DNA of 64,000 bases from an uncultured delta proteobacterium (GTDB lineage: Bacteria; Desulfobacterota; RBG-13-43-22), in assembly GCA_963743305.1 (NCBI GenBank), contig CAVUPH010000026.1, positions 1-64,000 of the forward strand. The letters are read 5' to 3'. This document shows, in pieces, positions 12,199-52,571 of the stretch; the stretch's first letter is position 1, and the number at the start of each line of letters is the position of its first letter. Made by a program: the position numbers and the translations under genes. The notes below the pieces were generated by a model that was not told where the DNA came from, searched no databases, and saw only the letters and a program-made list of their open reading frames with translations.

Positions 12199-12290
12199 AA
12201 AACGACTTTCTGCTCGGCGGGAGATTCCGCCTTAGGTGGGACTCCCCCGCCATTTGAAATGAATTCCAAAGGTGCCAACCCTACCTCGCC

Positions 12291-13329: not shown

Positions 13330-13333
13330 CCAA

Positions 13334-14599
13334 CTAACTCCGGATTTGTCCCTGACCGAAGACGATGAACTTGGTGGTGGTTAATTCGTTCAGCCCCATG
13401 GGACCGAAGGCGTGCAGCTTGGACGTGCTGATGCCGATCTCGGCCCCCAAGCCTAATTGATTCCCGTCATTAAAACGGGTGGAGGCGTTCACCAGGACCA
13501 CCGAGGAATTAACCGCCTGGAGAAACTGCCGCGCCCGGGTATAATCCTGGGTGATGATGGCCTCCGTGTGTTGTGAACCGTAACGCTGGATATGCCGGAC
13601 GGCCTCTTCCAGATCCTTAACCACTCGAACGGCTAAAATCAAATCCAGGTACTCCGCGGACCAGTCCGCTTCCCGGGCCGGGATGATCCCCTTCCCTCCG
13701 CCCACTATCTTCAGAGTGGCCGGACAGCCCCGGATCTCCACGCCCGCTTCCCGAAAGCGTTTGATCATCTGTGGAAGAAACTTCGAAGCCGCTTGTCGAT
13801 GAACCAGCAGGGTTTCCATGGCGTTACAGACACCCGGCCGCTGCACCTTGGCATTGAGGCTGACGTTTTCCGCCAAAGCCAGGTCGGCGCCCTGGTCCAC
13901 GAAAATATGACAAACCCCCTTATAGTGTTTTAATACCGGGATCCGGGATTGGGCGGTCACCGTCCGGATCAGTCCCTCTCCGCCCCGGGGAATGATCAGG
14001 TCAATATACTCTTCCAGTTTGAGCAGCTCCGTGGTGGCCTCCCGGTCGGTGATCGGGACGAGCTGAATGGCGCCCGGATGGACCTCTTCCCGGATCAGCA
14101 CTTCCTGGAGAATTTGAGCCAATATCCGATTGGATTGCAGGGCTTCGCTTCCCCCCTTGAGGATCACGGCGTTGCCCGATTTTAAACAGAGTCCGGCGGC
14201 ATCCACCGTCACATTGGGCCGAGCTTCATAAATAAAGCCGATGACCCCCAAAGGGATGCGCATCCGCCCCACCTGCAATCCGTTGGGCCGAAGCCGTAAG
14301 CCGGTAACTTCTCCGACCGGATCGGGCAGTTGAACCACCTCCCGCAGCCCCCGAGCCATTTCAGCCAAGGTTTTTTCGGTAAGCTGCAGTCGATCTAAAA
14401 AAGCCCGGGGCCGGCCGGCCCGGTGCGCCAGAGTGAGGTCTTTTTTGTTCTCTTTGAGGATGGTCCTGGTTTTTTTCTCCAAGGCCTCGGCCATGGCCGA
14501 AAGGCAACGATTCTTTTGGCTGGTGTTCAGGAGAGGCAGGGTATGCGCAGCCGCCTTGGCTTTTTCAGCCAGTTCCAGGACCATTTTTTGAATGTCCAT
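13334..14599 (-). CDS. proA: Gamma-glutamyl phosphate reductase
   Basis: [31 protein letters not shown] and HAFGPMGL. Confidence 0.97.
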
Positions 14600-14646
14600 A
14601 TTGATATCCTTCTTCATTTGATCCGTGGTAGCAAAAAAAGGTTAAA

Positions 14647-15804
14647 TTAGAGATCATCCGAGACCAGCACCAGATTGTCCCGGTGGATGGCTTCGTCGGA
14701 CTGCTTGAACTCTAAGCGTTTTTCGATTTCAGAAGACTTCAGCCCTTTGATCTTCTCCAGATCGGAAGAGGAGTAATTCACCAGGCCCTTGGCCACCCGT
14801 CTACCCTCCTGATCCAGACAACCGACACAGGAGCCTACCCCAAAACGGCCCTGCACGGCGATGATACCCGAAGGCAAGAGACTCTTTCCTTTTTCGACCA
14901 GTGCTTTTCGGGCCCCTTCATCAAGAATGATTTCGCCGCGAGGTTTAAGGGTATAGGCAATCCAATGTTTCTTGCGACTTAACGATTGTTTCTGGGGGAG
15001 GAAAAGCGTCCCCCAGGGCTGGCCTTTAATAATCTCCTTCAAAACCCCTTCCCGGCGCCCGTTGGCAATGATGACCGGCGTACCTTGGAAGGTTACCTTA
15101 CGGGCGGCCTTGATTTTGGTCCGCATTCCCCCCAGGCCCCATTCACCGGAACTAAGGGAGGTGAAGCGTATGACCTGACTGTCCACCTTCTCTACTACCG
15201 GGACCAATTCAGCCTGGGGATACTGCCGGGGGTCCCGGCTGTAAAGTCCGTCCATATCGGTTAGGATGATCAACAAATCTCCATCAATGAGATGGGTAAT
15301 CAGGGCCGAGAGATTGTCGTTGTCGCCGAATTTGATCTCCTCCACGGCCACGGTATCATTCTCGTTGATGATGGGGATAATCCCCCAGTTCAGCAAGATA
15401 GTCAGGGTATTGCGGGCATTGAGGTATCTGCCCCGATGGGTCAGATCGTCCCGGGTAAGCAGGATCTGAGCGACTTTCAGGTCGAAACGGTCGAAGGCTT
15501 CCTCGTAGACCTGAATCAGACGGCCTTGGCCGATGGCGGCCACGGCCTGTTTCTCGGGAATGGTTTCCGGTTTTTTCCTGATCCCCAGCTTTCCCATCCC
15601 GGAGGCGATCGCCCCGGAAGAAACCAGGGTCACCTTCAACCCCTTTTTCTCCAGGAAGGCCATTTCTTCGGAGAGTCGCAGGATGGTCGGCCGGTGTAAA
15701 GCCCCATTTTCCGTGAGGACCGCGCTCCCCACCTTGATGACTACCCGATTGACTCCTTTAAGAAGTTCTTTCCGCTGTACCGTCAGTGATTCCTGGGGAG
15801 TCAT
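14647..15804 (-). CDS. proB: Glutamate 5-kinase with PUA domain
   Basis: VIKVGS, VSSGAI, NENDTV, FGDNDNL and GGMRTK. Confidence 0.97.
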   Translation of the reverse strand: MTPQESLTVQRKELLKGVNRVVIKVGSAVLTENGALHRPTILRLSEEMAFLEKKGLKVTLVSSGAIASGMGKLGIRKKPETIPEKQAVAAIGQGRLIQVYEEAFDRFDLKVAQILLTRDDLTHRGRYLNARNTLTILLNWGIIPIINENDTVAVEEIKFGDNDNLSALITHLIDGDLLIILTDMDGLYSRDPRQYPQAELVPVVEKVDSQVIRFTSLSSGEWGLGGMRTKIKAARKVTFQGTPVIIANGRREGVLKEIIKGQPWGTLFLPQKQSLSRKKHWIAYTLKPRGEIILDEGARKALVEKGKSLLPSGIIAVQGRFGVGSCVGCLDQEGRRVAKGLVNYSSSDLEKIKGLKSSEIEKRLEFKQSDEAIHRDNLVLVSDDL

Positions 15805-16795
15805 TTTGGATTTCAACCTTTAGAAAAATTTGAGCGACCAACTCTTCCAACCCCTCTCCGGTCAGCGCTGATATCCCCAAGGGGGCCGCCCCCTGTTCCC
15901 GAAAGCGCGCTGCCGTTTTCAGAAACTCCTTCCGGACCGGAGGTAAATCTATTTTGTTGATCACCACCAGGGAGGGCTTCTCCAGTATCCGGGGGTTAAA
16001 AGCTTGTATTTCCTGCCTAATGATCTGCCATGATCTTAGGGGATGGGCATCGGCTCCGTCAACCAAATAAATAAGCAGCCGGGTCCTTTCAATGTGGCGT
16101 AGAAATTTCAACCCCAGCCCGGAACCCGAACCGGCCCCCTCGATGAGCCCGGGTATGTCGGCCAGGGTCAATCGTCGACCACGCGGGTCTTCAACGACTC
16201 CCAGATTGGGGGTTAAGGTGGTAAAGGGATAATCGGCGATTTTTGGTTTAGCCGCGGAGATCTTCGAAAGCAGTGTGGATTTTCCGGCATTGGGGAGGCC
16301 GATCAGTCCCACCTGGGCTAAAAGTTTCAGTTCCAGGCGCAGCCATCGTTCTATTGCGGGTTCCCCGTCTTGGGCAAATCGGGGTGTCCGCTGGGTGGCC
16401 GAGGCGAAATGTTTATTCCCCTTTCCGCCGCGTCCCCCTGCTGCGGCAACCCAGATCTGGCCGTCCGCAACCAAATCCGCAAAAATTTCTCCGGATTCGG
16501 GATCCCGAACCAGGGTCCCCAGAGGAACCGGTATCCGAATGTCCTCGCCGTTCTTGCCGTGGCGGTCATTTCCCTGGCCTTGTCCGCCCTTGGTGGCCTT
16601 AAAATGTTGCTGGTATTGAAAGTCAAGAAGGGAATGGATCTTCGAAGAGGCAATGAAGAGTACGTCTCCCCCTCGGCCGCCGTCCCCGCCATCGGGGCCG
16701 CCAAAGGGTTTAAACCGCTCCCGCCGGAAACTGACACAGCCCTTCCCCCCGGCTCCGGAGCGAACAAATATTTTGGCCTCATCAACAAACTTCAA
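15758..16795 (-). CDS. obgE: GTPase Obg
   Basis: FVDEAKI, GGPDGGDGG, GLPNAGKST, DYPFTT, DIPG and NKID. Confidence 0.97.
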   Translation of the reverse strand: MKFVDEAKIFVRSGAGGKGCVSFRRERFKPFGGPDGGDGGRGGDVLFIASSKIHSLLDFQYQQHFKATKGGQGQGNDRHGKNGEDIRIPVPLGTLVRDPESGEIFADLVADGQIWVAAAGGRGGKGNKHFASATQRTPRFAQDGEPAIERWLRLELKLLAQVGLIGLPNAGKSTLLSKISAAKPKIADYPFTTLTPNLGVVEDPRGRRLTLADIPGLIEGAGSGSGLGLKFLRHIERTRLLIYLVDGADAHPLRSWQIIRQEIQAFNPRILEKPSLVVINKIDLPPVRKEFLKTAARFREQGAAPLGISALTGEGLEELVAQIFLKVEIQNDSPGITDGTAERTS

Positions 16796-33579: not shown

Positions 33580-34230
33580 TTAGGCGGCGATCCGGCCTTG
33601 TTCGATCCGAATGACCCAGTCGGTGATCCGCTTGACCTGCTCCATATCGTGGGTGGCCATGATCACCAGGGTCCGAGCCTCCCTTCGGAGTTTCAGGATG
33701 ATCTCCTCGATCACCGCGGTATTATGGGGATCGATGGAGGCCGTGGGTTCATCCAGGAAGAGGACTTCCGGTTCCACCACCAAAGCCCGGGCCAGGCCCA
33801 GACGCTGGGTTTCCCCGCTGGAAAGGGTCAGGGCATTCTGATCCTTCTTATGGGCTATCCCCACATAGTCCAGGGCCTCCGAGACTTTATCTTTGATCAG
33901 ACGGGCTGTCCCGCCCCTGATCTTCAGCCCGAAGGCCACATTCTTAAAAACCGAGGTATTAAAAACCCCGACCTTGGGCAAGACCAGGGTGATTCGCCTT
34001 CTGAGTTCCATGTTGGGCGCTATCATCCGGCCCGCGGACTCATAGGTAACGGCTCCCTGGTCAGGACTTTCCAGGAGAGCGCAAATCCTCAGAAAAGTGG
34101 ACTTCCCTCCCCCATTCGGCCCGATCAGACCATAAATCCCGGCCTGTCCAAAGGAATAGGAACAATTTTTGAGAATAGGCTTCCCTTCATATTGCTTGGA
34201 TACGTTGGTTACTTCCAGGGCAAGGCTCAT
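33580..34230 (-). CDS. tupC: Tungstate ABC transporter ATPase
   Basis: GPNGGGKST, LSSGETQR and LDEPTAS; follows tupB. Confidence 0.85.
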   Translation of the reverse strand: MSLALEVTNVSKQYEGKPILKNCSYSFGQAGIYGLIGPNGGGKSTFLRICALLESPDQGAVTYESAGRMIAPNMELRRRITLVLPKVGVFNTSVFKNVAFGLKIRGGTARLIKDKVSEALDYVGIAHKKDQNALTLSSGETQRLGLARALVVEPEVLFLDEPTASIDPHNTAVIEEIILKLRREARTLVIMATHDMEQVKRITDWVIRIEQGRIAA

Positions 34231-34934
34231 CCTTTGCCCCCCAAATCCCCTCGTTTTTGAATCAACCGCAGCGCGAAATTGATCAGCAGGGAGATGGTCA
34301 GCAGAATAGTCCCCAGGGCCAAGGCCAGCTCAAAGTTCCCTTTGTCGGTTTCCAGGGCGATGGTGGTGGTCATGACCCGGGTATAGCCGGCGATATTCCC
34401 CCCCACCATCAGGATCGCGCCTACCTCGGCCATGACCCGTCCGAACCCGGCGATGATCCCGGCCATGATCCCGTAGCGGGCTTCCCTGACCACTAAGATC
34501 GCCTCCTGGGAGGGAGTGGCGCCCAGGGTCTTGGCCGCCTGTCGGATCATGGTCGGAACATTCACAATGGCCGAGTGGCAGAGGGCGCTGACGATGGGAA
34601 AGGCCAGAATGGTCTGGGCAATCACCATCGCCGAGGGAGTATAGAGCAACCCCAGGAACCCGAAAGGTCCTCTCCGGGATAAAAGTAAATAAACAAAAAG
34701 GCCCACCACCACCGGCGGCAGGCCCATAAAGGTATTCAGCAGGTTGATGATCAGACCCCGGCCGGGGAACCTTTTAAGCCCCAACCAGGCGGCCAGGGGA
34801 AGCCCCAGAAGGGTGGCGAGAATCAAGGCCGATCCGGAGACTTTGAGGGACATCCAGATGATCCTCAAGAGTTCCCGGTCCAGATCTCCGATCAGGATCA
34901 AGGCCGCTGAAAAACTATTAAGAATGGAGTCCAC
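34227..34934 (-). CDS. tupB: Tungstate ABC transporter permease
   Basis: MGLPPVVVGL, FGRVMAEVGA and TRVMTTTIALET. Confidence 0.9.
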   Translation of the reverse strand: MDSILNSFSAALILIGDLDRELLRIIWMSLKVSGSALILATLLGLPLAAWLGLKRFPGRGLIINLLNTFMGLPPVVVGLFVYLLLSRRGPFGFLGLLYTPSAMVIAQTILAFPIVSALCHSAIVNVPTMIRQAAKTLGATPSQEAILVVREARYGIMAGIIAGFGRVMAEVGAILMVGGNIAGYTRVMTTTIALETDKGNFELALALGTILLTISLLINFALRLIQKRGDLGGKG

Positions 34935-34993: not shown

Positions 34994-35833
34994 CTATTTC
35001 GTTTGACCCGCGTTGGGGAAGAAGAGCACGTTCCCGAACTTGTCCTTATAGGAGCCGATGGCCTGCTGTCCCTCTTTGGAGATCAACCAGTTGACAAATT
35101 CCATCGCTTCTTTAAACTTGGCGTGTTTGTATTTTTCCGGGTTGACCGCCATGACGCCATACTGATTGAAGAGCGCCGGGTCCCCCTCCAGGACGATGGT
35201 CATTTCCAGTTTATCTTTGTCCTTGGTGGCCAGCCAGGTGCCCCGGTCGGTCAGGGTATAGCCCTTCTTTTCATTGGCGATCCGCTGTGTCTTTTCCATC
35301 CCCTGTCCGACCTCCAGGTACCAGTCCTGGCCTTTGGGATCCAGTCCCACCTTTTTCCAGAGGGAAAGCTCCATGGTGTTGGTCCCGGATTTATCCCCCC
35401 GGGAGATAAACGGTCCTTTGCCGGCAGCAATTTTGGAGAAGGCCTCGGTGGCCTGCTTCAGCCCCTTTATTTTCAAGGGGTCATTGGCCGGCCCGATAAT
35501 GACAAAATCGTTGTACATGACGTCATGCCGGTTGACGAAATAGCCTTCGGCCGCCGCCTTGAGCTCCAATTCCTTGGCGTGAACCAGGACCACGTCGCAG
35601 TCGCCCCGTTTGCCGATTTCAATGGCCGCTCCGGTGCCCACGGCTACCACATCGACTTTGATCCCGGTCTTTTTCTCAAACAAGGGCAGCAGGTATTCGA
35701 ATAATCCGGAATTCTGGGTGCTGGTGGTCGAGGCGCAACGGATGCGCGTCTGGGCCTGGGCTGTACCATTCAGCAGCAGGGAGCCCGTCATAAAAACAGA
35801 TAAAAACAAAATCATCGCTTTTCTCATCTTCAA
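34994..35833 (-). CDS. tupA: Tungstate-binding periplasmic protein
   Basis: Signal peptide (AQA), STTSTQNSGL, VGTG, VMYNDF, SRGDKSGT and LTDRGT. Confidence 0.92.
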   Translation of the reverse strand: MKMRKAMILFLSVFMTGSLLLNGTAQAQTRIRCASTTSTQNSGLFEYLLPLFEKKTGIKVDVVAVGTGAAIEIGKRGDCDVVLVHAKELELKAAAEGYFVNRHDVMYNDFVIIGPANDPLKIKGLKQATEAFSKIAAGKGPFISRGDKSGTNTMELSLWKKVGLDPKGQDWYLEVGQGMEKTQRIANEKKGYTLTDRGTWLATKDKDKLEMTIVLEGDPALFNQYGVMAVNPEKYKHAKFKEAMEFVNWLISKEGQQAIGSYKDKFGNVLFFPNAGQTK

Positions 35834-35943: not shown

Positions 35944-37380
35944 CTACCAGACCACTTCAAAGCGGGTCAAAATGGCCTGTTCATTATCCATTTTTTTACC
36001 GCTGACGGTAATGGGGTCATCGAACTTGGTATAATAATAATTGACCATGAAGCGCAGCATGTCGTTCGGGTACCAGGTCAGACCCAGGGTATAGCCGGAG
36101 GCTTTGGCGGTGTATTTCTTGGGATCGGCAAATCCCAGGTTCAGGATATCCGGGTCCATATCGATCCACTCATATCGGCCCAGGAGCTGGAAGGCGCCAC
36201 AGTATCCCGATTTCCCCAAAACAAAGGGTTTTTTGGGGGTGATTTGCCCCGGCAGCCCGTTCCGCCAGGGTTCCTCTTCACCGGTCAGAAACCATCCCAA
36301 TGAAGCGTAGCCGGCCGTGTTGTCAAAACTGGCCTTCTTCTTGTTGAAGGTCAAATCATTCAACTGCATTTTCATATATTCGGACTTCAGGGAAACCGGA
36401 CCGACCATCCAGGCCAGTTCACCTCCCAAGCGATTGCGGCTGCCGTCCTGGGTCACCGTATCATTAAACTGCAGAAAGGTCGTTCCGCTTTCGGTTTTGT
36501 ATTGAGACCGCCACCAGTCCGTTGCCGGGGTGGTGGTATGCTGGATCCCGGTGGTGAAGGCCCCGCCAATATGGAAGCCTTTTAAGAATTTGTTGTCCAT
36601 CTTGGAGAAGGGCGCCAGGGTAACCCGACCGGCCACGTCTTTCTGGTCGTCCACATCGCTGGAATTGAGCTTCCGGCCGTTGAAGACCCCCAACTGATAA
36701 TAGAGGAGATCTTTGCTGATATTGCCGTGAAGCATGACGCCCACATCCCGGGAAGGAGCAAAATTATCGGACAGGGAGCGTTCCACGAAATCGATCCAGT
36801 TGTCCGAACTCAATTCTTCCAGACTGAAAGGGACCTTGTATTGCCCGAACATCAATTGGGCATAAGGAATGTAATTGATATTCAAAAAGGCATCGTTGAG
36901 CTGGGCGTTCCCCTGGCCCATCTCGTATTCCACGCTGAAATTATAGTGTTTGTAGAAAGTACCGATGGCGGCCAGCCGGGCCCGCCGGATCAGAAAGGTG
37001 TCGTTATTGGGATTGTCGTTCAGAAATTGTCGGTAGTCGGCATGCAGCCGTCCGGATAGTCGAAGCTTATTTTCACCATCCGCCGACTCCATGGTAAAAC
37101 CCTTTTTGAAATCCACCTTGGCATTTCCCGCCGGGGCCTTTTCTTCCTTGACCTTCTTTTCCAGTGCCCGCAGTCGGGTCAATTCCGCCTCTTCGGCCTC
37201 GGCCTGCTTCTTCATTTCCTGGTACTTTTCCGGGGTAACCATCTTGCTGTTCAGCAGAATTTCCAGGATCTGTTCATTGAGCGATTTGGCCTGGACCCCT
37301 TGGGGCAGGGCCCATATAAAAATTCCGGTCAGTAAGATGAATCCAATAGACCTGCCAAAGGTTCGCACGTTCCCCTTCAT
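35944..37380 (-). CDS. OprO/OprP-family anion-selective porin
   Basis: Signal peptide, coiled coil, IRRARL, GQYKVPFSLEEL, ERS, RDVG, WFLTGE and terminal W. Confidence 0.88.
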   Translation of the reverse strand: MKGNVRTFGRSIGFILLTGIFIWALPQGVQAKSLNEQILEILLNSKMVTPEKYQEMKKQAEAEEAELTRLRALEKKVKEEKAPAGNAKVDFKKGFTMESADGENKLRLSGRLHADYRQFLNDNPNNDTFLIRRARLAAIGTFYKHYNFSVEYEMGQGNAQLNDAFLNINYIPYAQLMFGQYKVPFSLEELSSDNWIDFVERSLSDNFAPSRDVGVMLHGNISKDLLYYQLGVFNGRKLNSSDVDDQKDVAGRVTLAPFSKMDNKFLKGFHIGGAFTTGIQHTTTPATDWWRSQYKTESGTTFLQFNDTVTQDGSRNRLGGELAWMVGPVSLKSEYMKMQLNDLTFNKKKASFDNTAGYASLGWFLTGEEEPWRNGLPGQITPKKPFVLGKSGYCGAFQLLGRYEWIDMDPDILNLGFADPKKYTAKASGYTLGLTWYPNDMLRFMVNYYYTKFDDPITVSGKKMDNEQAILTRFEVVW

Positions 37381-37415
37381 ATCTCCCTCCTTCATTTTGT
37401 AATTTCTCTGCCATA

Positions 37416-38115: not shown

Positions 38116-38895
38116 TTACTTGCCCTTGATTACCGAGGGTATGGCCTCGGGATAAAACAAGTTGGTCCCATGCTTCTTATAGCCGGCAATCAGCTTTTGC
38201 CCTTCCAGGGAAGTGACGAAGGTGATAAATTCCATGGCCGCCAGATAATTGGCCTGGGGGAACTTATCCGGACAAACCGCCATGACGCTATAGAAATTCA
38301 GCAGCAAGGGGTCTCCCTTGAAAAGGATCTTCAAATCCAGCTTGGGTTCATATTTCAAGAAAGTCCCTAGATCGGTCAAGGTATAGGCCCCCTGACGATC
38401 CGCCGCGATCAGGGTATCGGCCATATTGGCCCCGGCCTCCTGGTACCAGCTCTTGCCTTTCGGAGTCAGCCCGGCATCGTCCCAGAGGTCCAATTCCCGG
38501 ATGTTGGTCCCCGAATCATCCCCTCGAGAGACAAACAGGCTGCCTTTCTCCGCGATCTCTTCCAAGGCTTCGATGACGGTTTGGGCCTTTTTCACCTTGG
38601 CCGGATCCTTGGCCGGGCCAACAATGGCAAATTCGTTGTACATCACCTCCCGGCGATTTACCCCATACCCTTCAGCAATGAATTTTTCTTCACGAAAGGG
38701 GTCATGGACAAAAAGCACATCGGCTTCTCCCTTTTTGGCCAACCGGATGGCCTTGCCCGTACCCACGGCAATAACCTCCACCTTGACCTGGTATTTCGAA
38801 AATTTCTCATAGGCCGGAATCAAGATGTCAAAAAGGCCTGAATTCTGGGTGCTGGTGGTTGAGGCAACGATCAGCTTGTTTTTTGCTTTAGCCAT
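38116..38895 (-). CDS. TupA paralog lacking a signal peptide
   Basis: MAKAKNKLIVASTTSTQNSGL, VGTG and SRGDDSGT; RBS aaggag just upstream, with AT-rich non-coding DNA before it. Confidence 0.85.
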   Translation of the reverse strand: MAKAKNKLIVASTTSTQNSGLFDILIPAYEKFSKYQVKVEVIAVGTGKAIRLAKKGEADVLFVHDPFREEKFIAEGYGVNRREVMYNEFAIVGPAKDPAKVKKAQTVIEALEEIAEKGSLFVSRGDDSGTNIRELDLWDDAGLTPKGKSWYQEAGANMADTLIAADRQGAYTLTDLGTFLKYEPKLDLKILFKGDPLLLNFYSVMAVCPDKFPQANYLAAMEFITFVTSLEGQKLIAGYKKHGTNLFYPEAIPSVIKGK

Positions 38896-38981: not shown

Positions 38982-39905
38982 TTATTTCCCCCCCGGATCA
39001 TCCCCGTGCTGTTTCTTGATAAAATTGTGGTGGGTGGCCGTACCTTCTTTTCGGGCCTGCCCGACGGTCAGGAACTTACCCACCAGGAGCATATGCATTT
39101 CCGGGGGCAGGTTCTGATAATCGATCTCTTTCAAAAACAGGCCGACCGTACTCCGCAGGACTTTTTCTTTTTCCCGGTCTCCGGCGTAAAGCACCACCGC
39201 CACCGGGGTGTTTTTGGAATAATGTTTTTTAAGCTGATCAAACAGCTTGGGATAGTCCAGCTTCATGGTATAAAAAACCATACTGGTTTTATGGGTCATC
39301 AGTTCCCTGTTTCTATCCCGCCGGCCCGGCCAGTCGGTCATGGTTAAAATAACCGAGCTGGTGTCCCAACCATAGGGCGGGCTCATCTTGACCGCGGCGC
39401 TGGAGGCCTGAAAGGCCCCGATCCCGGGGATGATTTCAGAGGGGAAATCCTTGGGCAGCATCTCCAGATAAAAGGTGGTTCCATACATCATGGGGTCCCC
39501 CCACTGGAGGGCCGCCACTTTTTTTCCCTGGGCCACCGCTTCTTTGATCTTGCCGATCATCGACTTTCGGGCTTCGGCGTTCCGGATGGCCTTGGCCCTG
39601 ACTTCGGGGTCTTTCAAGGTCTGCGGATCAATTCCATAATACACCCGGGCGACATGTCCCAGGTACCAGACCGGTTTGTCGCCGATCCACTGTTTCCAAG
39701 CCTCCAGATCCGACTGGTCTTCCAGGATGAAGATATCGGCCTGCTTAACCGTCTCGAGCCCCCGGAGGGTGATCAGGTCCGGGCTGCTGCCCATGCCGAC
39801 GATATAGAATTTTCCTTCGCCGGCCAGCAGAGAGCCGGGAAGAGCCAGCAACAATACCAGCAGGACGCCACTCAGTAACTTTATTAGACGCTCTTCTTTA
39901 AACAT
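38982..39905 (-). CDS. Tetrapyrrole (CobM/CbiF-like) methyltransferase-fold protein with an N-terminal signal peptide
   Basis: LLSGVLLVLLLALPGSLLA precedes FYIVGMGSSPDLITLRG, GDPMMYG, IPGIGAF and TPVAVV. Confidence 0.82.
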   Translation of the reverse strand: MFKEERLIKLLSGVLLVLLLALPGSLLAGEGKFYIVGMGSSPDLITLRGLETVKQADIFILEDQSDLEAWKQWIGDKPVWYLGHVARVYYGIDPQTLKDPEVRAKAIRNAEARKSMIGKIKEAVAQGKKVAALQWGDPMMYGTTFYLEMLPKDFPSEIIPGIGAFQASSAAVKMSPPYGWDTSSVILTMTDWPGRRDRNRELMTHKTSMVFYTMKLDYPKLFDQLKKHYSKNTPVAVVLYAGDREKEKVLRSTVGLFLKEIDYQNLPPEMHMLLVGKFLTVGQARKEGTATHHNFIKKQHGDDPGGK

Positions 39906-39924
39906 ATATCCTTTCCTTTCCAAT

Positions 39925-40698
39925 TTAATTTAATCGGTACACCACCGGGATCGTGATCTGGGCTTCCACGGGGGGACGTGGAAAAGGGGCGCTTTCCATT
40001 AAAGACTCCAGAGCTTTCTGATCCAGGAGTTCATAACCGGAACCCCTGGCCACCCGGGGATCTTTTATCAAGCCATTGGTCGTGATGATAAACGAGAGGA
40101 CGACTTTCCCCTCCCAGCCCAGGCGCCGCGCTATTGCCGGATAGTTGACATTTTTCAGAATCTTGTCCCGAATGTAGGCGAATTGTTCAGCCAGATAACG
40201 GTTTTTGGCCTTCTCGGCGGCACCGCTTTCTAAGTTGGATCCTCCACCACTTCCGCCTTTTCCAATGACCGGTCCGCTCCCGGAAATCCCGGATATACCC
40301 GTTCCACCGGCCTGCCCGTCTGGTTTTCCCGACCCTCCCGGCACATTCGGGACACCCGGCTCTTCCACGGGTACGCTCAAATCCGAAGTGGAATGAATCC
40401 AGGTGGGGGAGGTTCCCGGGACTTTCGGTGCTGCCGGAGGGGGAGGGAGTTTGACCTCTTCCCGGGGAACCGGGGCGGGAACGGCCTGGGATAGTTTTTT
40501 TGATGCCGGCTGGAATGATTTTTTTAGCGGGGTCTCCCGGATTTCTTGAACCGGGGCCGGAGTTGGTTTTTCCAAGTCAAAATCGATGATCACCGGGTGA
40601 TGTTTTTTTATTTCCAGCGTGCTGAGACCCAACACCCCGGCAATCACCACCGCGTGAATGATCAAAGAATATTGGACCCCTCTGGCTTGCGGTTTCAC
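39925..40698 (-). CDS. tonB: Energy transducer TonB
   Basis: SLIIH transmembrane segment, Pro/Gly linker and YPAIARRLGWEGKV...SGYELLD. Confidence 0.92.
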   Translation of the reverse strand: MKPQARGVQYSLIIHAVVIAGVLGLSTLEIKKHHPVIIDFDLEKPTPAPVQEIRETPLKKSFQPASKKLSQAVPAPVPREEVKLPPPPAAPKVPGTSPTWIHSTSDLSVPVEEPGVPNVPGGSGKPDGQAGGTGISGISGSGPVIGKGGSGGGSNLESGAAEKAKNRYLAEQFAYIRDKILKNVNYPAIARRLGWEGKVVLSFIITTNGLIKDPRVARGSGYELLDQKALESLMESAPFPRPPVEAQITIPVVYRLN

Positions 40699-41075
40699 GG
40701 CCGTTCTTCGGTCTGGAGACTGACCCGTTTAAACTGAAGTCCTTTGACCAGATCCAGGACATCGACAAACCCCTGTAGGGCGATCTGCCGATCCGCCCGG
40801 ATCAGGATCGGGATATTCCTATTCTGCCCCTCCAGGCCCTGTCTCAACCCATCCAGGGCCACCGCTTTAGCGTTCAAGAACAGCCCCCCCTGACGGTCGA
40901 TCGCAATGGTCTGGGTCCGCAGCATCTCCCCCTGGCTTTTGACCACTTTGGGCAGATCGATAGGAATCATCCCGGTGGCGATAAAGGATGAAGTGGTCAA
41001 AACGATCGCCAGCAGAACCAGCATGACGTCCACCAGCGGGATTACATTGATATAATCAAACTCTTTTTCTTCCAT
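40695..41075 (-). CDS. exbD: Biopolymer transporter ExbD
   Basis: INVIPLVDVMLVLL and IRAD. Confidence 0.93.
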   Translation of the reverse strand: MEEKEFDYINVIPLVDVMLVLLAIVLTTSSFIATGMIPIDLPKVVKSQGEMLRTQTIAIDRQGGLFLNAKAVALDGLRQGLEGQNRNIPILIRADRQIALQGFVDVLDLVKGLQFKRVSLQTEERP

Positions 41076-41490
41076 TCAGAACGTCCCAGTCCAGGAGCAA
41101 CACCTTGACCTTGCGCAACAGGAAATTATACAAGGTCACCGAGGGAATGGCCACCAGCAATCCCACGGCCGTGGCCTTCAGGGCCAGGGCCAGGCCCACC
41201 ATGATCTTACCGGTATCCATGAACCCTTCCAACCCGATGGTATAAAAGGTCAGCATGATCCCTAAAACGGTCCCGAGCAGGCCGATATAGGGCGCGTTGC
41301 TTCCAATGGTGGCGATCAGGTAAAGTTTTCCGGTCAGTTCCTTTTCCAGACCGGGTTTGTCGGGGAAGTCTTCTAAGCGTATACGCCGATAAACCAGGTG
41401 GCGTTCCAGGGCTACGCTCAGGGCCACGATGCTCAGCAGAATCAGGAACCCGATGATCCCGTAATCGACCGCAATTTTCACCCATTCCAT
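41056..41490 (-). CDS. exbB: TonB system ExbB (short type)
   Basis: NAPYIGLLGTVLGIM and ALKATAVGLLVAIP. Confidence 0.93.
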   Translation of the reverse strand: MEWVKIAVDYGIIGFLILLSIVALSVALERHLVYRRIRLEDFPDKPGLEKELTGKLYLIATIGSNAPYIGLLGTVLGIMLTFYTIGLEGFMDTGKIMVGLALALKATAVGLLVAIPSVTLYNFLLRKVKVLLLDWDVLNGRKRV

Positions 41491-41496
41491 AATTCG

Positions 41497-44916: not shown

Positions 44917-46702
44917 TTAATGGTGGCGATCCAAAGTCTTGGCCTCCAGGCAGGCCCCGATGTGGGAAATCATGCCCAGCCACTTTTCCTTTTCTTCCCA
45001 GGCGATGGACAGGGCCTTGTCCAGCGTGGTCTTCACCAGGCGCTCGCTGTCGGCAAAGCCCACCCGATAGGCAAAATAAACCGGGTGGCCGGCGGGTAAT
45101 AGCCGCCCAACAGATCCAGCAGGCCTTTTAAATCCTTCAACCCCATGAACAGGGCCAGGGTGTCCCCCTTCTCGACCGCCGCCTTAAGCAACGCCGGGTT
45201 GTCCTTAAGGCCCAGGAGGTGGACAGGAACAACCGCCCTCCCGGCAGGCCAGCTCCTTCCCGATGAGCGCGTTGGCGGCATTGAAGGCGCTGATCCCCGA
45301 GATGAACTCCTTTTCCTGATCTCCCAACCGGGCGGCGATCTGGCGCAGACTCCCATAGATAAAGGGATCCCCGTATTCCAGCAGGGCCACGTTCTTCCCC
45401 TGTTGCAGTTCAGCCTGAATCAGTTTTACCGCTTCTCGATCTTTTTTTCCAGCAGGGTCTCTTTTTCCTTCGGGGACAGCTTGCCCAGCTCCTTTCCATA
45501 AATGGGCTCCGGCATCAAATACTTGAAAGGATCAAACAGGACCGGGCGCCCTCCGATGTAAGCGGACAGACGTTTTTTCAGATCGTCGCTGCAGACGAAG
45601 ACATCAGCCCGGCCCAGGGCCGACAAGGCCTGCTGGGTCAACAGGTCCGGATCGGCGCAGCCCATACTGATCAAGATAGGCCTTGGGTTTCCGGAGCAGG
45701 TTGATGACCTCGATCCGGGAAACGGCCTTCACCCAGCGATCGGCCGACAGGTCGTCGGGGATCACCAGTTTAAACTTGCCGTCCGCCTGAATGGGCTTTC
45801 CTTCCTTGCGGTCGGCGATGATGATTCGCCGGCCCAGGGGATTGAGCAACAGCTCCCCCATGGAGATCAGGGACCGGTACCCGTCCGGTGCCGAAATGAC
45901 CACGGCCAAATTCAGGTCCTTGGTTACCCCGGCCCGGGTGAGCACCTCCATCAAGGGGACCCCTTCAAATCGGAGCAGACCGTGATAGCCTCTCCCCTCG
46001 CCCGCGACCTTGCCCGTCACCTCCACCCGGGGATAGGCCGATAAATCGGTCACGGTCAGCGGGGGTTTGCGGCTCCTGAACCACCGTCAGATCGGGGGCA
46101 AAAAGCTCCTTCATCCGTTTCACCGGCATTTCGAAATGCAGGTCGACCACCTCGATACTGGTCACGTTTTCCAGAGACCGCTCGGTATAGAAATCGTTGG
46201 CCACCACCAGCCTGGGTAAGCCCACCTTTCTTTTCAAGGGATCGTGCCAGACCCGGTAAACCTCCGCTGGGTGACAGGCAGCGCAGTCTCTGAGAGGCAT
46301 GACCGGCTCCGTCTGGAAGGCCACGACGATGTCCGCCGGGTTGCGATAAAACACCTCCCCCCAGACAAGGCCGCCTGTTTCTCCCTCCCGGTTACGGACC
46401 ACGATGGCCATATCCAGCGGTTTACTAAAGGCCGATTCCCCTTTTTGGACCACCGCGGTCTCCAGCAGCTTCCTTCAACGACACCCCCCGGTAGTTGAAA
46501 ACCCCGTGAAAAGTCTTGTCCCGGGTCAGTTCATTCAGGCGCACCGGAATCGATTGGAAGCGAGCCAGATCGGAGAGGCTGAATTGAAGCGGTTGTTTGA
46601 CGGCGCCAATGATATGCAGGCTTTCCAAGGTACCGGCCTCCACCCCGGGAAGCGATCAACAGGAGACTCAGACCAATAAACGACCCATTTCATCTTCTTC
46701 AT
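44917..46702 (-). CDS. Exported multidomain protein: molybdopterin-oxidoreductase-like domains, CxxCH and C-terminal tetrapyrrole methylase fold (frameshifted)
   Basis: Fragments read GLSLLLIAS..VEA; GAVKQPLQFSLSDL..YRGVSL; DCAACHP; FEGVPL..APDGY..LVIPDD..RWVKAV; MGCADPDLLT; GDPFIYG; ISGISAFNAA. Confidence 0.72.
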
Positions 46703-47481
46703 AAAACGATACTCCTTTTTTAAACGGATTTTCGCTGCGGAAAGTACCAGACCAGGGCCAGGATCAGGACAATGAACCCCCAGAAAATGAAGGTGCCGGC
46801 CGGGATCCTGTTTGATGACCACCTTCAACTCCTGACCCGGTTGGGCCTTTTTGGCCATATCCAGATGAAAGGTATATCCCTTCCAGGAGACCGGTTGCAT
46901 GATCTGGAGCTCCCGGGATTTCAGGCTGCCGGCGGCGTCAAACAGCAGAACCGCCCGGCATTGTTTGTAGCATCCCCCGGATAGGTTCCGGACCCGGATA
47001 GCGCTGACAATCTTGACTGATCAACCGGACCATCCCGACGCCCGGAAGCTGGATACCGGTTTTCGGTTTGTTCGGAACGACCCCGTTGAAGCCCACGACC
47101 AGGCTGATCCAGTGCCCGGAAAGGATGACCAGGAAACATAAATGGATCAAGGAAGGGCTGAGTCGGAACGGAAAACGTTCGGACACCGATCTGTCTCCTT
47201 AAAGGCCATAAATGGATCAGTCGTTTCAAAGCGCAGACCACGGTATTGACGCCTAGAAAGAACAGCAGGAGAATAAGACTTCCCAGCCACCAGAGTTGGT
47301 TGATCTGGGAACGACCCACCTGTTGAACCCACTCTTGAATCAACATCTGGTTCAGCGGATTGAAGAAAGTAAAATTAAATTTCAAATAATAGGAACCGAT
47401 CCCCAGGTTGGCAGAAATCAACAAGAGCAACCAGAAGTTGACTTTGACCTCGCCGCAGAAATCCCAAATCTTTTGAAACAT
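46700..47481 (-). CDS. ResB/CcsB-like cytochrome c biogenesis protein, frameshifted
   Basis: N-terminal transmembrane segments, NTVVC, SLIHLCFLVILSGH and terminal QDPG plus a transmembrane segment; follows the ccsA-like gene. Confidence 0.7.
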
Positions 47482-47485
47482 TCCG

Positions 47486-48246
47486 CTATCCCCCGATCCG
47501 TGGCGGCAGGTTGGTTTCGGTCAAGAACCCTAAGTAGCCGTAAAGCAGGATCATTGCCAGCCCGACCAGCGAGAAGCGGGCTTCGGTCCGCAGATTCCAG
47601 ACCGGAAGATAGCGAAGATGCAGCAAAGCCGCATAAAAACACCAGAGTGAAGCGGATTGCAGATGACGGGCGCTCCAGTGCAAAGGGGTGGCCCAGCCTA
47701 GAAAGGCCCAGTAGGCGCCCACCACCTGGGCGCCGCTGAAAAAGATAAACCCCCAGACCAGGAAGGAATGGAAAAGGCGGGCCGTTTCGTCCTGCCGCAA
47801 GTAGATCAGGCCCAACATGCTCCCCGCGATAAAACAGGCGTGGCTGATAACCTCCAGCATAAAGAACAGCCAAGAAAACAAGGTCTGGGTTTTCGGATTG
47901 GGCGGAACCACCCCCAGGGGAAAAAGAAAAGCCAATACCGAGAAGACCACCAGGGGAATCAGTAGCCCGCCGGCGAGAGAGGCTTTCCCGGGAATGAATC
48001 TGAACCCCAAAGCCAGCGCCGCCAGGCACCAGGGCAGGAAAAAACTTTCTTCAAAAAGGGCATAGGGGGACCAAATCCCGACAAGCCCTCCCCGGTTGAC
48101 CAGAAAGACGGTGTGTCCCAGGAAACCGAGCACCAGGCAAGACGAATGGGAATGTATCTCCGCCGGAATAGCCAGGCGACCATTGAAGCGGCATAAAAAC
48201 CCGTTACGAGCGGAAACCCGTTATTTATTGTTATCGAGATCATCAA
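47486..48246 (-). CDS. ccsA: CcsA/ResC-like cytochrome c assembly protein (variant WWD motif), one frameshift
   Basis: GAYWAFLGWATPLHWSARH...WCFYAALLHLR with multiple transmembrane segments. Confidence 0.78.
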
Positions 48247-48361: not shown

Positions 48362-50566
48362 TTACTGGAATCGAGTCTGAAGCGCCTTATAGTTCCAGCC
48401 GAAGGAGACCAGCAGCTCCTCCCCGGCCTTGAGGAGCAGTTCGAGGTATTTCTTTCGATCGTAGGGTTCCTGGCCGGTCAGGAAGGGGGCGGGGACCACC
48501 CGCTCCTCGGGCAGGGCCGCCCCGCTGTCCCGCAGGAGAAAGGACACCCGCTGGCCGGGATGGAGGGTCAACCCCTCGGCCTCCAGTTGCTGGAGGGTCA
48601 GGGCCGACTGGGTAGCCACCCGGTACTGGTCCAGGGGACGGCTGGATCGGCGGGTGATGATCAGTTCCGTGGGGTGGACCCGTCCGTCTTTCAGCAGTCC
48701 GGCGTATTCGCCCAGACGGGTCAGCATTTCCGGCACCTGCTTTTCCAATGTCTGCCGGTCCCCGGCCCGGGCCATCCAACCCAGGAGTTCCTCCTGCACC
48801 TCCCGGACGAAGCGGGGGACGTCCTTGCGGCAGCGGGCGATCCCCCGGGTCTTGAGGGTCCCGTTTTGAAAGGCCCCGAAGTAGCGGTTGGCCACCGGAC
48901 GGCGCGGCTGGACCTTGGAAGGCAGGAAGACGATCCAGTGATAAATTCCCTCCAGACTTATGGGAACCTGGGTCTTTCGCTCGATTTCCTCAAGCAAAAT
49001 GTTAATGTCCCCTTCCGTCAGCCGCTCCCCCTGGAGCCAGAGGGAATCGGTCAGCCCGTGGAGGACCTGGTAGCCCCGGATCTCGGCGCACTCCTTGGCG
49101 ATCAGCAGCTTGTCCCGGCCGAAGGCGGTGATGGCCTCGTGGGCCTCGATCCGACCGAAGCGGGCGTTCTTGTAGCCCAGGTAGCCGAAGCAGGTGACCA
49201 GCACCCACTTCAACCCTTTCTGCAGGGCCTGATAAACGGCCTTCCGCGGATGCCCCTCCTTGATCCGGGCCTTGAGCTCGGTCCGCAGCTTCAGGATCGG
49301 CTCCAAGGTTTCAGGCACCAGGCCTCGACGGCGCCGACAGATATTGTAGCCCGCCTCCGGGACCACCGGTTCTGGGCAGCAGGAACATAGCATGGTTTCG
49401 GGCGAGATATTGTGCCGGACCATGATGGTGGGATACATGGAGGCATAGTCGATCTCGGCCACCCGCTCTCGGAGTCCGATCGGCGGCTGGAAGACCAGCC
49501 CTCCCTTGTCCGCAACCAGAAGGTCCCAGGCGGTCTTGAAGTCCTCGGGCCGCCCCTTTTTCCAGGGGATCAGGATTCCTTTTTGCACCGCCCGGTCGAG
49601 CTGCATGGAGGTGATGGCCGTGCCCGGCGAGGTCCGGGCCAGGGTCTGAACCGGGATCTTGGTCAGTCGCGCCAGAAAGATGGTTCCCTCCAAGCCGCAC
49701 TCCCCCTGGGTGAAGAAAAAGGAATTGTTCCGGTCGATGTGGAAGCGCCCGAAGAGGGGGAAGGCCGCGCCCTGGTAGGCAATCTGCCCGTAAGTAAAGT
49801 AGGAGCGCCCTTCCCCCACCCGCCGGCGCGGCGGAGGGTGGGGGTCCCGGTCCAGGACCAAAGGGATTTTCTCCTTCTCGGACCAGTGCCAGAGACAGGG
49901 AAAGATGCGTCCGTCCCCGTGTTGGGAGAGGAGGCAGTCGGGATCCAGGCGGGCTACGAGTTGGTTGAATTCGGTCAGCAGTTCGGCGGGAGTCAGGCCG
50001 TCCAGTTCGAAGACCCGGTCCTCATAAGTCACCTGCAGGCTGTTGCCCCGCTCCAAAGGGATCTGGGGGTGTTTAGCCAGGGTGAGCTCAACAACTTTTA
50101 GAGAAGGAATCGGAGCATCCGGGTCCCAGGGGGAATGGAGGACCTTGAGACCCCGGAGCTGATTGCGCTCCCATTCGAACTCGCAGAAGGCCAGGGGGAA
50201 GAGGCCCCGCTCGTAGGCGTAGTATTGGGGAACGGCCAGGTCGCAGTTGTAAAAGGTGATCCCGCCGGCCCAGTCGGCCAGGCGCCGCTGGATCTCCGGG
50301 AGCTTCTGCAGGGCCCGGACCTCCAGCTCGAAAACCGGCATTGCTTTGCCGCTCCAGAACTCAGTCCGCCTGGTCCAGCCCGTGCGCCGCAGATACCGGC
50401 CAAGCCCTCTTTCCAGGGCGCTCAGGGCGGACCGGGTCCCCTGGGCGTAAAAGCGGTAGTCGAAATAATCGGTCAGGCAGAGCATCTCCCCGCCCGTTAA
50501 TCGAAACCAGAGGACCATCACGTCCTCGCGCACGTACAAGTCGAAAAGCCAGCCTTTGGCGATCAT
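48362..50566 (-). CDS. polB: Family B DNA polymerase, PolB2-like
   Basis: Motif A DYASMYP, motif B KWVLVTCFGYLG, motif C HGLTDSL (first Asp of DTDS replaced), NRYFG and KTRG; exonuclease motifs look eroded. Confidence 0.9.
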   Translation of the reverse strand: MIAKGWLFDLYVREDVMVLWFRLTGGEMLCLTDYFDYRFYAQGTRSALSALERGLGRYLRRTGWTRRTEFWSGKAMPVFELEVRALQKLPEIQRRLADWAGGITFYNCDLAVPQYYAYERGLFPLAFCEFEWERNQLRGLKVLHSPWDPDAPIPSLKVVELTLAKHPQIPLERGNSLQVTYEDRVFELDGLTPAELLTEFNQLVARLDPDCLLSQHGDGRIFPCLWHWSEKEKIPLVLDRDPHPPPRRRVGEGRSYFTYGQIAYQGAAFPLFGRFHIDRNNSFFFTQGECGLEGTIFLARLTKIPVQTLARTSPGTAITSMQLDRAVQKGILIPWKKGRPEDFKTAWDLLVADKGGLVFQPPIGLRERVAEIDYASMYPTIMVRHNISPETMLCSCCPEPVVPEAGYNICRRRRGLVPETLEPILKLRTELKARIKEGHPRKAVYQALQKGLKWVLVTCFGYLGYKNARFGRIEAHEAITAFGRDKLLIAKECAEIRGYQVLHGLTDSLWLQGERLTEGDINILLEEIERKTQVPISLEGIYHWIVFLPSKVQPRRPVANRYFGAFQNGTLKTRGIARCRKDVPRFVREVQEELLGWMARAGDRQTLEKQVPEMLTRLGEYAGLLKDGRVHPTELIITRRSSRPLDQYRVATQSALTLQQLEAEGLTLHPGQRVSFLLRDSGAALPEERVVPAPFLTGQEPYDRKKYLELLLKAGEELLVSFGWNYKALQTRFQ

Positions 50567-51662: not shown

Positions 51663-52571
51663 TTATTGGAGCCGTTTTCTGGCCGGTTTGACCGAATACA
51701 GGGCCTGTTCTTCCTTGATCAGGCAAGCTTTTTCAGTCTCGATCTTTTCAAAAATAAACTGGGTCTTCAAAAATAAATTCATATCCTCCGCTTTCAAGTA
51801 CCCGGCCGCCATTCGACAATATTCCGGATCAATTTCCACACCGATACTGTGGCGGGCATTTCGAAGAGCTGCCACCATAGTGGTGCCGGAACCGCAAAAA
51901 GGATCCAAAACGGTATCCCCCGTGAAAGAAAACATCCGCACCAGTCGGGAGGCCAGTTCAAACGGAAAGGGGGCGGGGTGATTACGAGTTGAGGCGCCGG
52001 GAACATTCCAGATTTGTTGAAACCAGCGGTCGAATTCATCCTTATTGATCCGACTGGCCTCGCGCTGGGCATTGGTCGGTTTCCGGCATCCTCCCGGTTT
52101 CCGCTGCATGAGAATGAACTCCATGTCGTTTTTAATGATGGCGTTCGGCTCGTAGGGTTTACCGAGAAATTTGGACCCGTTTGTCACCTCGTAGGAGGCA
52201 TTGGCGATTTTATGCCAGACAATCGGGTTCAAGTTATCAAAACCAATCCGTCGGCAACTGACGCAGATATCCGCGTGGAGCGGAAAAACGAGGTGCCGGC
52301 CGAAATTCCGCCGGGCTACACACACGTCGCCGACCACACAGACCAGTCGGCCTCCGGGGACCAGGACCCTATAAATATGTCGCCAGACCTTCTCCAATTC
52401 TCCCAAAAACGCTTCATAATCCTCGATGTGTCCGAGTTGATCTGAATTTTCGTTGTAGCGCTTGAGGTTCCAATAAGGTGGGGAGGTGACCACCAGATGC
52501 ACCGACTCGTCTTCAATAAAAGATAAATCGCGCGCATCGCCGTTGATTAACCGGTGGATCGTCTTTCCCAT
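51663..52571 (-). CDS. Site-specific DNA methyltransferase (N4-C/N6-A, beta class)
   Basis: VTSPPY near the N-terminus, HPAPFP and DPFCGSGTT. Confidence 0.92.
   Translation of the reverse strand: MGKTIHRLINGDARDLSFIEDESVHLVVTSPPYWNLKRYNENSDQLGHIEDYEAFLGELEKVWRHIYRVLVPGGRLVCVVGDVCVARRNFGRHLVFPLHADICVSCRRIGFDNLNPIVWHKIANASYEVTNGSKFLGKPYEPNAIIKNDMEFILMQRKPGGCRKPTNAQREASRINKDEFDRWFQQIWNVPGASTRNHPAPFPFELASRLVRMFSFTGDTVLDPFCGSGTTMVAALRNARHSIGVEIDPEYCRMAAGYLKAEDMNLFLKTQFIFEKIETEKACLIKEEQALYSVKPARKRLQ

Follow-up and report, generated by a model that had tools for sequence, protein, structure and literature searches.

Why would a methyltransferase fold of the precorrin type be joined to a heme site in what appears to be an exported protein, and what would such a protein do outside the cytoplasm? 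This question is raised by a gene at 44917-46702 (minus strand) in a 64,000-nucleotide stretch of DNA from an uncultured delta proteobacterium (GenBank assembly GCA_963743305.1, contig CAVUPH010000026.1, positions 1 to 64,000), which is called the window below. A preliminary description of its sequence had read the gene as an unusual fusion of a signal peptide, two molybdopterin (MPT)-oxidoreductase-like domains, a CAACH heme site and a precorrin-methyltransferase fold. Comparison with relatives indicates a conserved architecture, namely a predicted secreted protein with two SUOX/PruR-like domains that lack the Cys ligand of molybdenum, one heme c site and a methylase-fold domain. The gene stands among genes for a TonB-dependent receptor, an APC-family permease and Tup-like transport proteins, and this context, which was absent from the preliminary description, is decisive. 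The fusion is a new combination of known parts and is plausibly linked to the acquisition of tungsten or molybdenum (W/Mo) by anaerobes. We tentatively propose that it is a Sec-exported periplasmic monoheme cytochrome c in which two Cys-less SUOX-fold domains are combined with an S-adenosylmethionine (SAM)-binding methylase-fold domain, that it serves as a heme-linked processing factor of TonB-dependent W/Mo acquisition, and that the window copy is broken only in the assembly.

The fusion is a single open reading frame in intact relatives

A search with the 162-amino-acid piece of the window copy that holds the CAACH motif gave 195 matches among longer proteins. Among the 120 listed of these 195, both PF00174 (Oxidored_molyb) and PF00590 (TP_methylase) were found in 79, PF00174 only in 40 and no Pfam family in one; typical lengths were about 585 and about 337 amino acids. 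The best match, P0001, is a protein of 593 amino acids that is 89% identical to the window copy and reads through every one of its breaks. Its PF00590 match reaches 133.7 bits (E 1.1e-38); PF00174 is matched in two separate stretches, with 51.1 bits (cut-off 24). Genomes of the same family contain uninterrupted frames of 520-632 amino acids, including open reading frames (ORFs) of 589-592 amino acids, and two clusters of the fusion architecture with 58 and 137 members, mostly from Thermodesulfobacteriota, are present in the ESM Atlas. A scan of one genome per species gave 80 loci, all of them in metagenome-assembled genomes (MAGs; Thermodesulfobacteriota, Nitrospirota/Thermodesulfovibrionales and a few others), which we classified as 47 fused, 23 unfused and 10 cut by contig ends. 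The unusual domain fusion is thus real in the relatives, and the risk that corrected sequence would fall into separate genes did not materialize as far as it could be tested, since the intact relatives hold one ORF.

AlphaFold2 gave confident models for the fused P0001 (predicted local distance difference test (pLDDT) score 82.7, predicted template modeling score 0.74) and for an unfused homolog, P0051 (84.8 and 0.82). NCBIfam has no specific model for the fusion protein. The names that the homologs carry in their sources are generic or misleading ('SAM-dependent methyltransferase', 'precorrin-4 methylase', 'siroheme synthase'), and the first two of them mislead the reconstruction of the cobalamin pathway in MAGs.

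The broken reading frame of the window copy

No single minus-strand frame is open across 44917-46702. Three-frame translation of this strand gave one protein-like path that starts with an ATG near 46702, ends at a stop at 44917 and requires about nine frame hops. The protein of roughly 590 amino acids obtained by stitching in the preliminary description agrees with the 593 amino acids of P0001 and the family length of about 585, and the motifs MGCADPDLLT, GDPFIYG and ISGISAF were all found in the translated frames. The Pfam check that had been suggested for Oxidored_molyb and TP_methylase gave matches above cut-off to both families on frame pieces of the window copy. PF00174 reached 29.6 bits (cut-off 24) on the piece 45604-46053 and 13.1 bits, under the cut-off, on the piece 46425-46643; two pieces matched PF00590, at 28.5 and 34.6 bits (cut-off 27.8), and four of the eight pieces were without a Pfam match. 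The features assigned to the gene are as follows.

44917-46702, minus strand: whole fusion gene, about 590 codons with about nine single-base indels; the intact ortholog P0001 has 593 amino acids
46631-46702, minus strand: predicted Sec-type signal peptide, approximately amino acids 1-24, crossed by two frame breaks; assigned from translation, homologs and model
46136-46628, minus strand: SUOX/PruR-like domain 1 with an insert bearing the heme site; model range 26-287 matched to 2blf (Z 16.3); E 1.1e-5 by hhalign with the SUOX protein of this genome
46271-46285, minus strand: CAACH, putative heme c attachment motif; C139, C142 and H143 invariant in 57 of 57 close fused homologs
45700-46059, minus strand: SUOX/PruR-like domain 2 with conserved GxGxGYHG, DGYR and DR; PF00174 at 29.6 bits, model range 203-333 matched to PruR 7rkb (Z 14.9)
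44920-45680, minus strand: class III methyltransferase (TP_methylase) domain with motif I GCAD, motif II GDPFIYG and motif III ISGISAF; assigned by Pfam, profile and Foldseek

The fusion gene was aligned with its ortholog in a same-genus genome, G002 (88.9% DNA identity). Within the gene, single-base indels were found at nine positions and longer gaps at two, of 4 and 3 bases; both ends of the alignment had gaps as well. About 38 frameshifting indels relative to G002 were counted in 41.5-48.5 kb of the window, whereas the coding bins on either side (40-41.5 kb and 48.5-50.5 kb) had none, and the mismatch rate inside this patch was like that of its flanks. In the frame of intact orthologs, the fusion gene had no in-frame stop when compared with G005 and two when compared with G007. 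Since the damage to an otherwise well conserved gene consists of indels only, it is likely that this stretch of the assembly was badly polished, and the gene is probably intact in the organism. The G002 ortholog (L016 8909-10694) is itself split into 316 and 282 amino acids by one frameshift inside domain 2.

An alternative, which we consider unlikely but which deserves some weight, is that the locus is a pseudogene operon in decay, with genuine frameshifts and with the receptor gene, the CcsA-like gene and all genes between them non-functional; it concerns the window copy only, not the family. Exactly five genes in a row, all of one functional unit (receptor, permease, fusion, ResB-like and CcsA-like), are hit by the indel patch, while the ExbBD-TonB and DNA polymerase genes on either side are intact, and the same-genus copy also carries a frameshift. 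Moreover, the genome is not uniformly error-ridden: long-ORF coverage of the 6-kb segment here is 0.37, a rare value between the 1% and 5% quantiles of the genome, whose median is 0.81. However, natural decay would bring nonsense and missense changes too, whereas the roughly 38 indels in 7 kb come without an excess of substitutions and with only 0 to 2 in-frame stops, and the product is still 89% identical to an intact protein. Several indels in the fusion gene adjoin short homopolymers, as is seen with long-read consensus errors.

Two SUOX-fold domains without the molybdenum ligand

The two tandem domains that precede the methylase fold (N-module) were compared with known structures by a search of the model against all representatives. 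The best matches of the N-module were sulfite dehydrogenase 2blf (Z 16.3), SoxCD 2xts (Z 16.1) and YedY/MsrP 1xdq (Z 12.3), and Foldseek agreed. Domain 2 matched PruR 7rkb (Z 14.9, root-mean-square deviation 1.8 over 120 residues) and PruR 7kp2 (Z 14.1), and a phmmer search of the 149-amino-acid domain-2 piece against PDB sequences gave no match at E up to 10. Domain 2 of P0001 and domain 1 of the G002 protein align with 26% identity over 205 columns (E 6e-9), which indicates a true internal duplication. Thus, the proposal of two repeats sharing a pattern holds with regard to duplication, but the elements 'A.DGY' and 'RWVK.V' of that pattern occur in domain 2 only. The domain-2 motifs GxGxGYHG, DGYR and DR form a pocket-like set that is kept throughout the wider family.

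According to a study of PruR, SUOX enzymes need a molybdenum-ligating Cys, which PruR lacks (PMC11194511). Within the N-module, no Cys is invariant apart from the two of CxxCH. When the module was aligned by hhalign with the Tat-signal SUOX protein of the same genome, the Cys of the CVTGW motif of the latter faced Thr in domain 1 (E 1.1e-5) and Gly in domain 2 (E 0.012, a weak alignment). Because the molybdenum-ligating Cys is missing and the match to PruR is about as good as that to the enzymes (Z 14.9 and 16.3), the N-module domains are not molybdoenzymes. The term 'MPT-oxidoreductase-like' has to be corrected accordingly; PF00174 itself is matched above cut-off. A true molybdoenzyme had been considered as a candidate and was rejected for the missing ligand and the lack of a Tat signal.

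Export and the heme site

The N-termini of intact homologs contain K or R within the first 10 residues in 55 of 57 cases and a hydrophobic run in 44 of 57, followed by A-x-A-type ends. An RR-type (Tat-like) motif was found by a crude regular expression in one of 57 fused and none of 34 unfused homologs, and the true SUOX protein of the genome has a Tat-type SRRTFL. In the P0001 model, residues 2-19 form a helix that is followed by a low-pLDDT linker. The signal-like N-terminus noted earlier is therefore Sec-like rather than Tat-like and is kept by the homologs, which makes export by Sec likely. c-type cytochromes need export via Sec. The fusion protein would accordingly reside in the periplasm.

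The CAACH motif lies exactly at the position given in the preliminary description, within the insert of domain 1. All 57 close fused homologs have CxxCH, as do 30 of 34 close unfused ones, and the fusion protein is predicted to carry covalently attached heme as a putative c-type cytochrome. A profile search for the wider family in 1.84 billion representatives gave 1427 matches at E ≤ 0.001, 120 of which were at E ≤ 1e-30. The best 150 of these 1427 matches include 113 proteins with 320 amino acids or more, 54 of which have one CxxCH. The claim that CxxCH is conserved is thus correct for the close fused homologs but not for the wider family. Variants of the wider tandem-domain family (P0121-P0270) have HHD--KAH in place of CxxCH, and in one subfamily the insert is about 25 amino acids longer before CxxCH.

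The methylase-fold domain

The precorrin-methyltransferase fold of the C-terminal domain (C-domain) was recovered by Foldseek (PDB entry 4e16, E 1.5e-12) and by a profile search against PDB (E 4.5e-20), in agreement with the PF00590 match of P0001. SAM motifs II and III are invariant in the fused family (G443, D444, P445, S470, F472 and N473), and motif I is altered to GCAD instead of GPGD; an extra insert of about 40 amino acids is present. Among the Cys residues of the C-domain, C347 and C583 are invariant in the fused family and C485 is present in at least 90%. An ortholog of a cobalamin-pathway methylase was rejected as a candidate identity, since the best score, 76.2 bits for cobM_cbiF, is far from its cut-off of 259.65 and none of the 25 listed families reached its cut-off. 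These features characterize the C-domain as a class III methyltransferase fold that retains SAM motifs and may bind SAM and transfer methyl groups.

The gene cluster around the fusion

The fusion gene belongs to a cluster of about 15 kb that runs from 48246 down to 33580 with all genes on the minus strand, in the order CcsA-like, ResB-like, fusion, APC permease, TonB-dependent receptor, ExbB, ExbD, TonB, a second secreted methylase-fold protein (TPM2), TupA-like, porin, TupA-like, TupB-like and ABC ATPase. The neighbors of the fusion gene are as follows.

47486-48246, minus strand: divergent CcsA-like heme-handling protein with one frame break near the 5' end; PF01578 at 39.7 bits, 57.3 bits in the intact ortholog (cut-off 29.9)
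46723-47481, minus strand: short ResB-like membrane protein, about 257 amino acids in relatives, frameshifted here; Pfam ResB (PF05140) at 18.3 bits (cut-off 24.6), BLASTP to the genome's canonical ResB with E 1e-6 over 106 amino acids
43584-44901, minus strand: permease of the APC family (LAT-like), with frameshifts; the ortholog matches AA_permease_2 at 193 bits
41500-43565, minus strand: TonB-dependent receptor, frameshifted here
39925-41496, minus strand: ExbB, ExbD and TonB genes, intact
38982-39923, minus strand: TPM2, a stand-alone secreted TP_methylase-like protein, intact
38116-38895, minus strand: TupA-like binding protein; full-length match to the TupA model under the cut-off of 400
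35944-37395, minus strand: porin
34994-35833, minus strand: second TupA-like protein; full-length match to the TupA model under the cut-off of 400
34227-34934, minus strand: TupB-like permease; TupB model at 169.4 bits (cut-off 320)
33580-34230, minus strand: ABC ATPase; TupC model at 121.2 bits (cut-off 400)

The Tup models are the best or only specific matches of the downstream genes; all of them aligned over the full length and below cut-off. The two TupA-like proteins, which are encoded by the only two TupA-like genes of the genome, scored 230 and 244.7 bits with the NCBIfam TupA model, and NCBIfam ABC_perm1 was matched in this gene set at 258.9 bits (cut-off 100). The porin gave a weak match to ExtI, the porin of a selenite/tellurite operon (41.9 bits, cut-off 150). 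Upstream of the cluster, a family-B DNA polymerase of 734 amino acids (48362-50566, minus strand) is intact and 95% identical to that of G002, and a DNA adenine methyltransferase-like gene lies at 51663-52571 (minus strand).

The preliminary description had placed ccsA and resB genes next to the fusion. The CcsA-like gene is supported by its Pfam score, whereas the assignment of 'resB' is weak. The canonical pair is encoded elsewhere in the genome, on contig C13 (locus L100), with ResB at 298.9 bits and CcsA at 189.1 to 190.1 bits, which indicates that the local CcsA/ResB-like pair is an extra, divergent set.

Recurrent neighbors of the fusion across 80 loci

Among the fused loci, 33 of 47 had the TonB-dependent receptor; it was also found in 21 of the 23 unfused loci and in 9 of the 10 cut ones. 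The APC permease was found in 32 of the 47 fused loci and in none of the 23 unfused ones; it lies directly downstream of the fusion in 21 of the 36 fused loci with room for an APC gene. CcsA-like genes were detected by tblastn in 27 of 80 loci, and the ResB-like cluster was present in 36 of 80. Genes for TupA-like or TupB-like proteins or for HTH_17+PBP_like regulators were seen in 35 of the 80 loci, and for loci of at least 15 kb the count was 24 of 37; when molybdopterin oxidoreductase and DUF364 genes were added to the count of W/Mo genes, the latter value rose to 29 of 37. The tungsten regulator TaoR has this same HTH_17+PBP_like architecture, according to PMC11980592.

Several further genes were seen near the module. 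A LysR regulator was found in 6 of 80 loci, for example at L021 5067-5972, which matched an NCBIfam 'selenium metabolism-associated' model at 259.4 bits (cut-off 250). In some loci (L015 (G021) 11093-16064, L022, L034, L053, L054 and L067), DUF364/DUF4213 'putative heavy-metal chelation' proteins lie beside the module, together with an FmdE-like protein (recognized by eye from the sequence, with no match in NCBIfam) and a class I methyltransferase-like ORF.

A second secreted methylase fold near metal-transport genes

The stand-alone family to which TPM2 belongs comprises at least 613 members at E up to 1e-5, all listed with PF00590. Signal peptides are kept in the family, and mean column identity across phyla is 57%. 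TPM2 neighborhoods were taken from 80 metagenome loci, 30 of which were at least 9 kb long. Genes for ModA-like proteins, Mo_ABC permeases, WtpC-like ATPases or PBP_like regulators were found in 13 of these 30 loci, and either such W/Mo genes or a receptor in 19. In 14 of the 80 loci, the gene that follows TPM2 encodes a cytochrome c7-like multiheme protein of about 235 amino acids; this arrangement echoes the pairing of heme and methylase in the fusion. Two independent lines, the fusion clusters and the TPM2 loci, thus tie a secreted methylase fold to c-type heme and W/Mo transport genes. A cyclic di-AMP riboswitch (104 bits) lies downstream of the TPM2 gene in L022 (17849-17982, plus strand) and was the sole Rfam match in six related loci.

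A possible role in tungsten and molybdenum acquisition

How might such parts work together? Under the proposed role in W/Mo acquisition, the receptor would carry into the periplasm a W or Mo species that is not the free oxyanion, and there the fusion may act on this cargo. The Gly- and Arg-rich pocket of domain 2 might bind the W/Mo species, and the heme might pass electrons to or from it. The methylase-fold domain, where present, would modify the ligand, and the TupA-like proteins would capture the released oxyanion for import by TupBC. The similarity of the co-occurring permease is of the LAT type, and the LAT-type APC family consists of exchangers. The permease may therefore serve the methylase domain, possibly supplying SAM, for example by exchange with S-adenosylhomocysteine. 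W/Mo as the cargo and every chemical step above are conjectures suggested by the gene content.

Several observations weigh against this role. Among the 37 long loci, 13 were without a W/Mo marker within 10 kb, and neither a W/Mo gene nor a receptor was found in 11 of the 30 long TPM2 loci. As the loci are related to one another and not independent, counts of co-occurrence make the support look stronger than it is. The identity of the transported oxyanion is uncertain, since all Tup matches are under the NCBIfam cut-offs. The best scores of the receptor are with siderophore, heme and B12 types, all sub-cut-off, and neither support nor exclude W/Mo. At the Rfam gathering score no match was obtained in the window, and neither the window nor six related loci yielded a molybdenum cofactor (Moco) riboswitch. 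The heme site is missing in 59 of the 113 wider-family representatives, some of them fused; redox therefore cannot be essential to the core function of the family. The APC permease occurs in only 4 of 80 TPM2 loci, which weakens the idea of catalytic methylation, and there is no known pool of SAM in the periplasm. The whole functional reading was drawn from gene content and predicted features, and neither a cultured organism nor expression data came to light.

Scavenging of tetrapyrroles (heme or corrinoid) would be an improbable alternative. In this case, the receptor would import a tetrapyrrole, the secreted methylase-fold domains would bind or modify it, and the CcsA/ResB-like pair would handle heme across the inner membrane. 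The C-domain and TPM2 are indeed closest to CbiF/CobM and CbiL, the receptor scored 154.6 bits with TonB-hemin and 139.3 bits with TonB-B12, and CcsA-family proteins are heme channels. CbiK-P of Desulfovibrio, a periplasmic heme-binding paralog of a cobalamin enzyme, may be named as a precedent. However, the receptor scores are far below the cut-offs of 316.85 and 599.7, and no BtuF/BtuCD, Hmu or heme-oxygenase-type genes were present among the 16 most frequent neighbor clusters of the 80 loci. The recurrent neighbors are Tup/Mod-type genes and W-type regulators. An APC permease is also too small as a tetrapyrrole carrier.

The tandem domains might instead sense or handle a pterin as PruR does, with the heme and the methylase fold acting on or reporting the pterin and with an indirect link to W/Mo, such as the sensing of pyranopterin or Moco fragments. 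We regard this as very improbable. Domain 2 does superpose on neopterin-bound PruR with the values given above, and the pterin-stacking Tyr of PruR, which is conserved in SUOX proteins according to PMC11194511, appears to be the invariant Y of DGYR. Against this, a Gly-rich loop stands where PruR has its PW motif, the Trp that would provide the second stack varies, as the RW position is not conserved, and the 16 most frequent neighbor clusters include no DcpA-type transmembrane regulator that could be the partner.

That the fusion is a membrane-anchored cytoplasmic methyltransferase, whose N-terminal stretch is a signal anchor and whose CxxCH is a metal site and not a heme site, is extremely improbable: SAM is a cytoplasmic compound and the fusion has retained its SAM motifs well, but A-x-A-type ends follow the hydrophobic run in the homologs, CxxCH is invariant in close homologs and accompanied by the CcsA-like and ResB-like genes counted above, and all partners are periplasmic or outer-membrane proteins.

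Returning to the proposed W/Mo role, a more far-reaching version can be formulated. The cluster might represent an undescribed TonB-dependent W/Mo route for thiometalates or organic complexes in anaerobes of sulfidic or anoxic habitats, in which a heme-wired, Cys-less SUOX-like module and a secreted methyltransferase fed with SAM by a LAT-type APC exchanger would carry out periplasmic processing. We consider this version highly speculative and do not expect it to hold in full. If true, it would describe the first periplasmic SAM-dependent enzyme of the class III fold and, for such organisms, the first W/Mo pathway that depends on TonB. Neither the fusion architecture nor a part of a secreted TP_methylase in the uptake of W/Mo was found described in the literature searched, which left most subscription journals outside.

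As stated in PMC11484787, molybdate is the one source of Mo that is known to be bioavailable, and euxinic habitats hold thiomolybdate and molybdenite. The present locus touches the open question of how strict anaerobes are supplied with W/Mo where free oxyanions are lacking. It offers concrete candidates: a receptor, a periplasmic cytochrome with SUOX-like ligand-binding domains, and secreted methylase-fold proteins. An exported class III methyltransferase fold wired to c-type heme, if true, would also widen the roles ascribed to this fold.

Comparison with known systems

Each part of the fusion protein and its surroundings has a known counterpart from which it departs. The SUOX-family molybdoenzymes SorAB (2blf), SoxCD (2xts) and YedY/MsrP (1xdq) are the best structural matches of the N-module, and SorAB and SoxCD pair the SUOX fold with a c-type heme. 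In contrast to these enzymes, the fusion is without the molybdenum-ligand Cys, a Tat signal and a dimerization domain, and its predicted covalent heme is in the same chain. The C-domain shares its fold and the SAM motifs II (GDPxxYG) and III (PGISAF) with CbiF/CobM (4e16, 2cbf), CbiL (2qbu) and CysG (1pjq), but it is predicted to be secreted, is fused to a putative cytochrome in a putative metal-uptake operon, and has the GCAD motif I and the insert of about 40 amino acids.

Dedicated System II synthases, such as the extra CcsBA isoenzymes of Wolinella, serve special heme sites. The present cluster resembles them in that a second, divergent CcsA/ResB-like pair adjoins one particular cytochrome gene while the canonical pair is located elsewhere. 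It differs in that the ResB-like partner has only about 257 amino acids and is below the Pfam threshold, and the target motif is an ordinary CxxCH.

PruR (7rkb, 7kom, 7kp2; PMC11194511) is likewise a secreted, truncated SUOX fold of about 130-150 amino acids without the molybdenum-ligating Cys. The fusion protein has two such domains in tandem, together with the heme c insert and the methylase-fold domain. In domain 2, the Gly-rich GxGxGYHG loop takes the place of the PW motif that PruR has at the former Cys position according to the same source. Its gene neighborhood holds Tup genes and a TonB-dependent receptor where PruR has DcpA-type regulators.

Finally, the cluster shares genes with the TupABC/ModABC importers and their TaoR/TunR-type regulators, since TupA-, TupB- and TupC-like genes and HTH_17+PBP_like regulators recur as neighbors here. 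Unlike the present cluster, however, the known TupABC/ModABC systems take up the free oxyanion through porins, without a TonB-dependent receptor, a cytochrome or a methylase-fold part.

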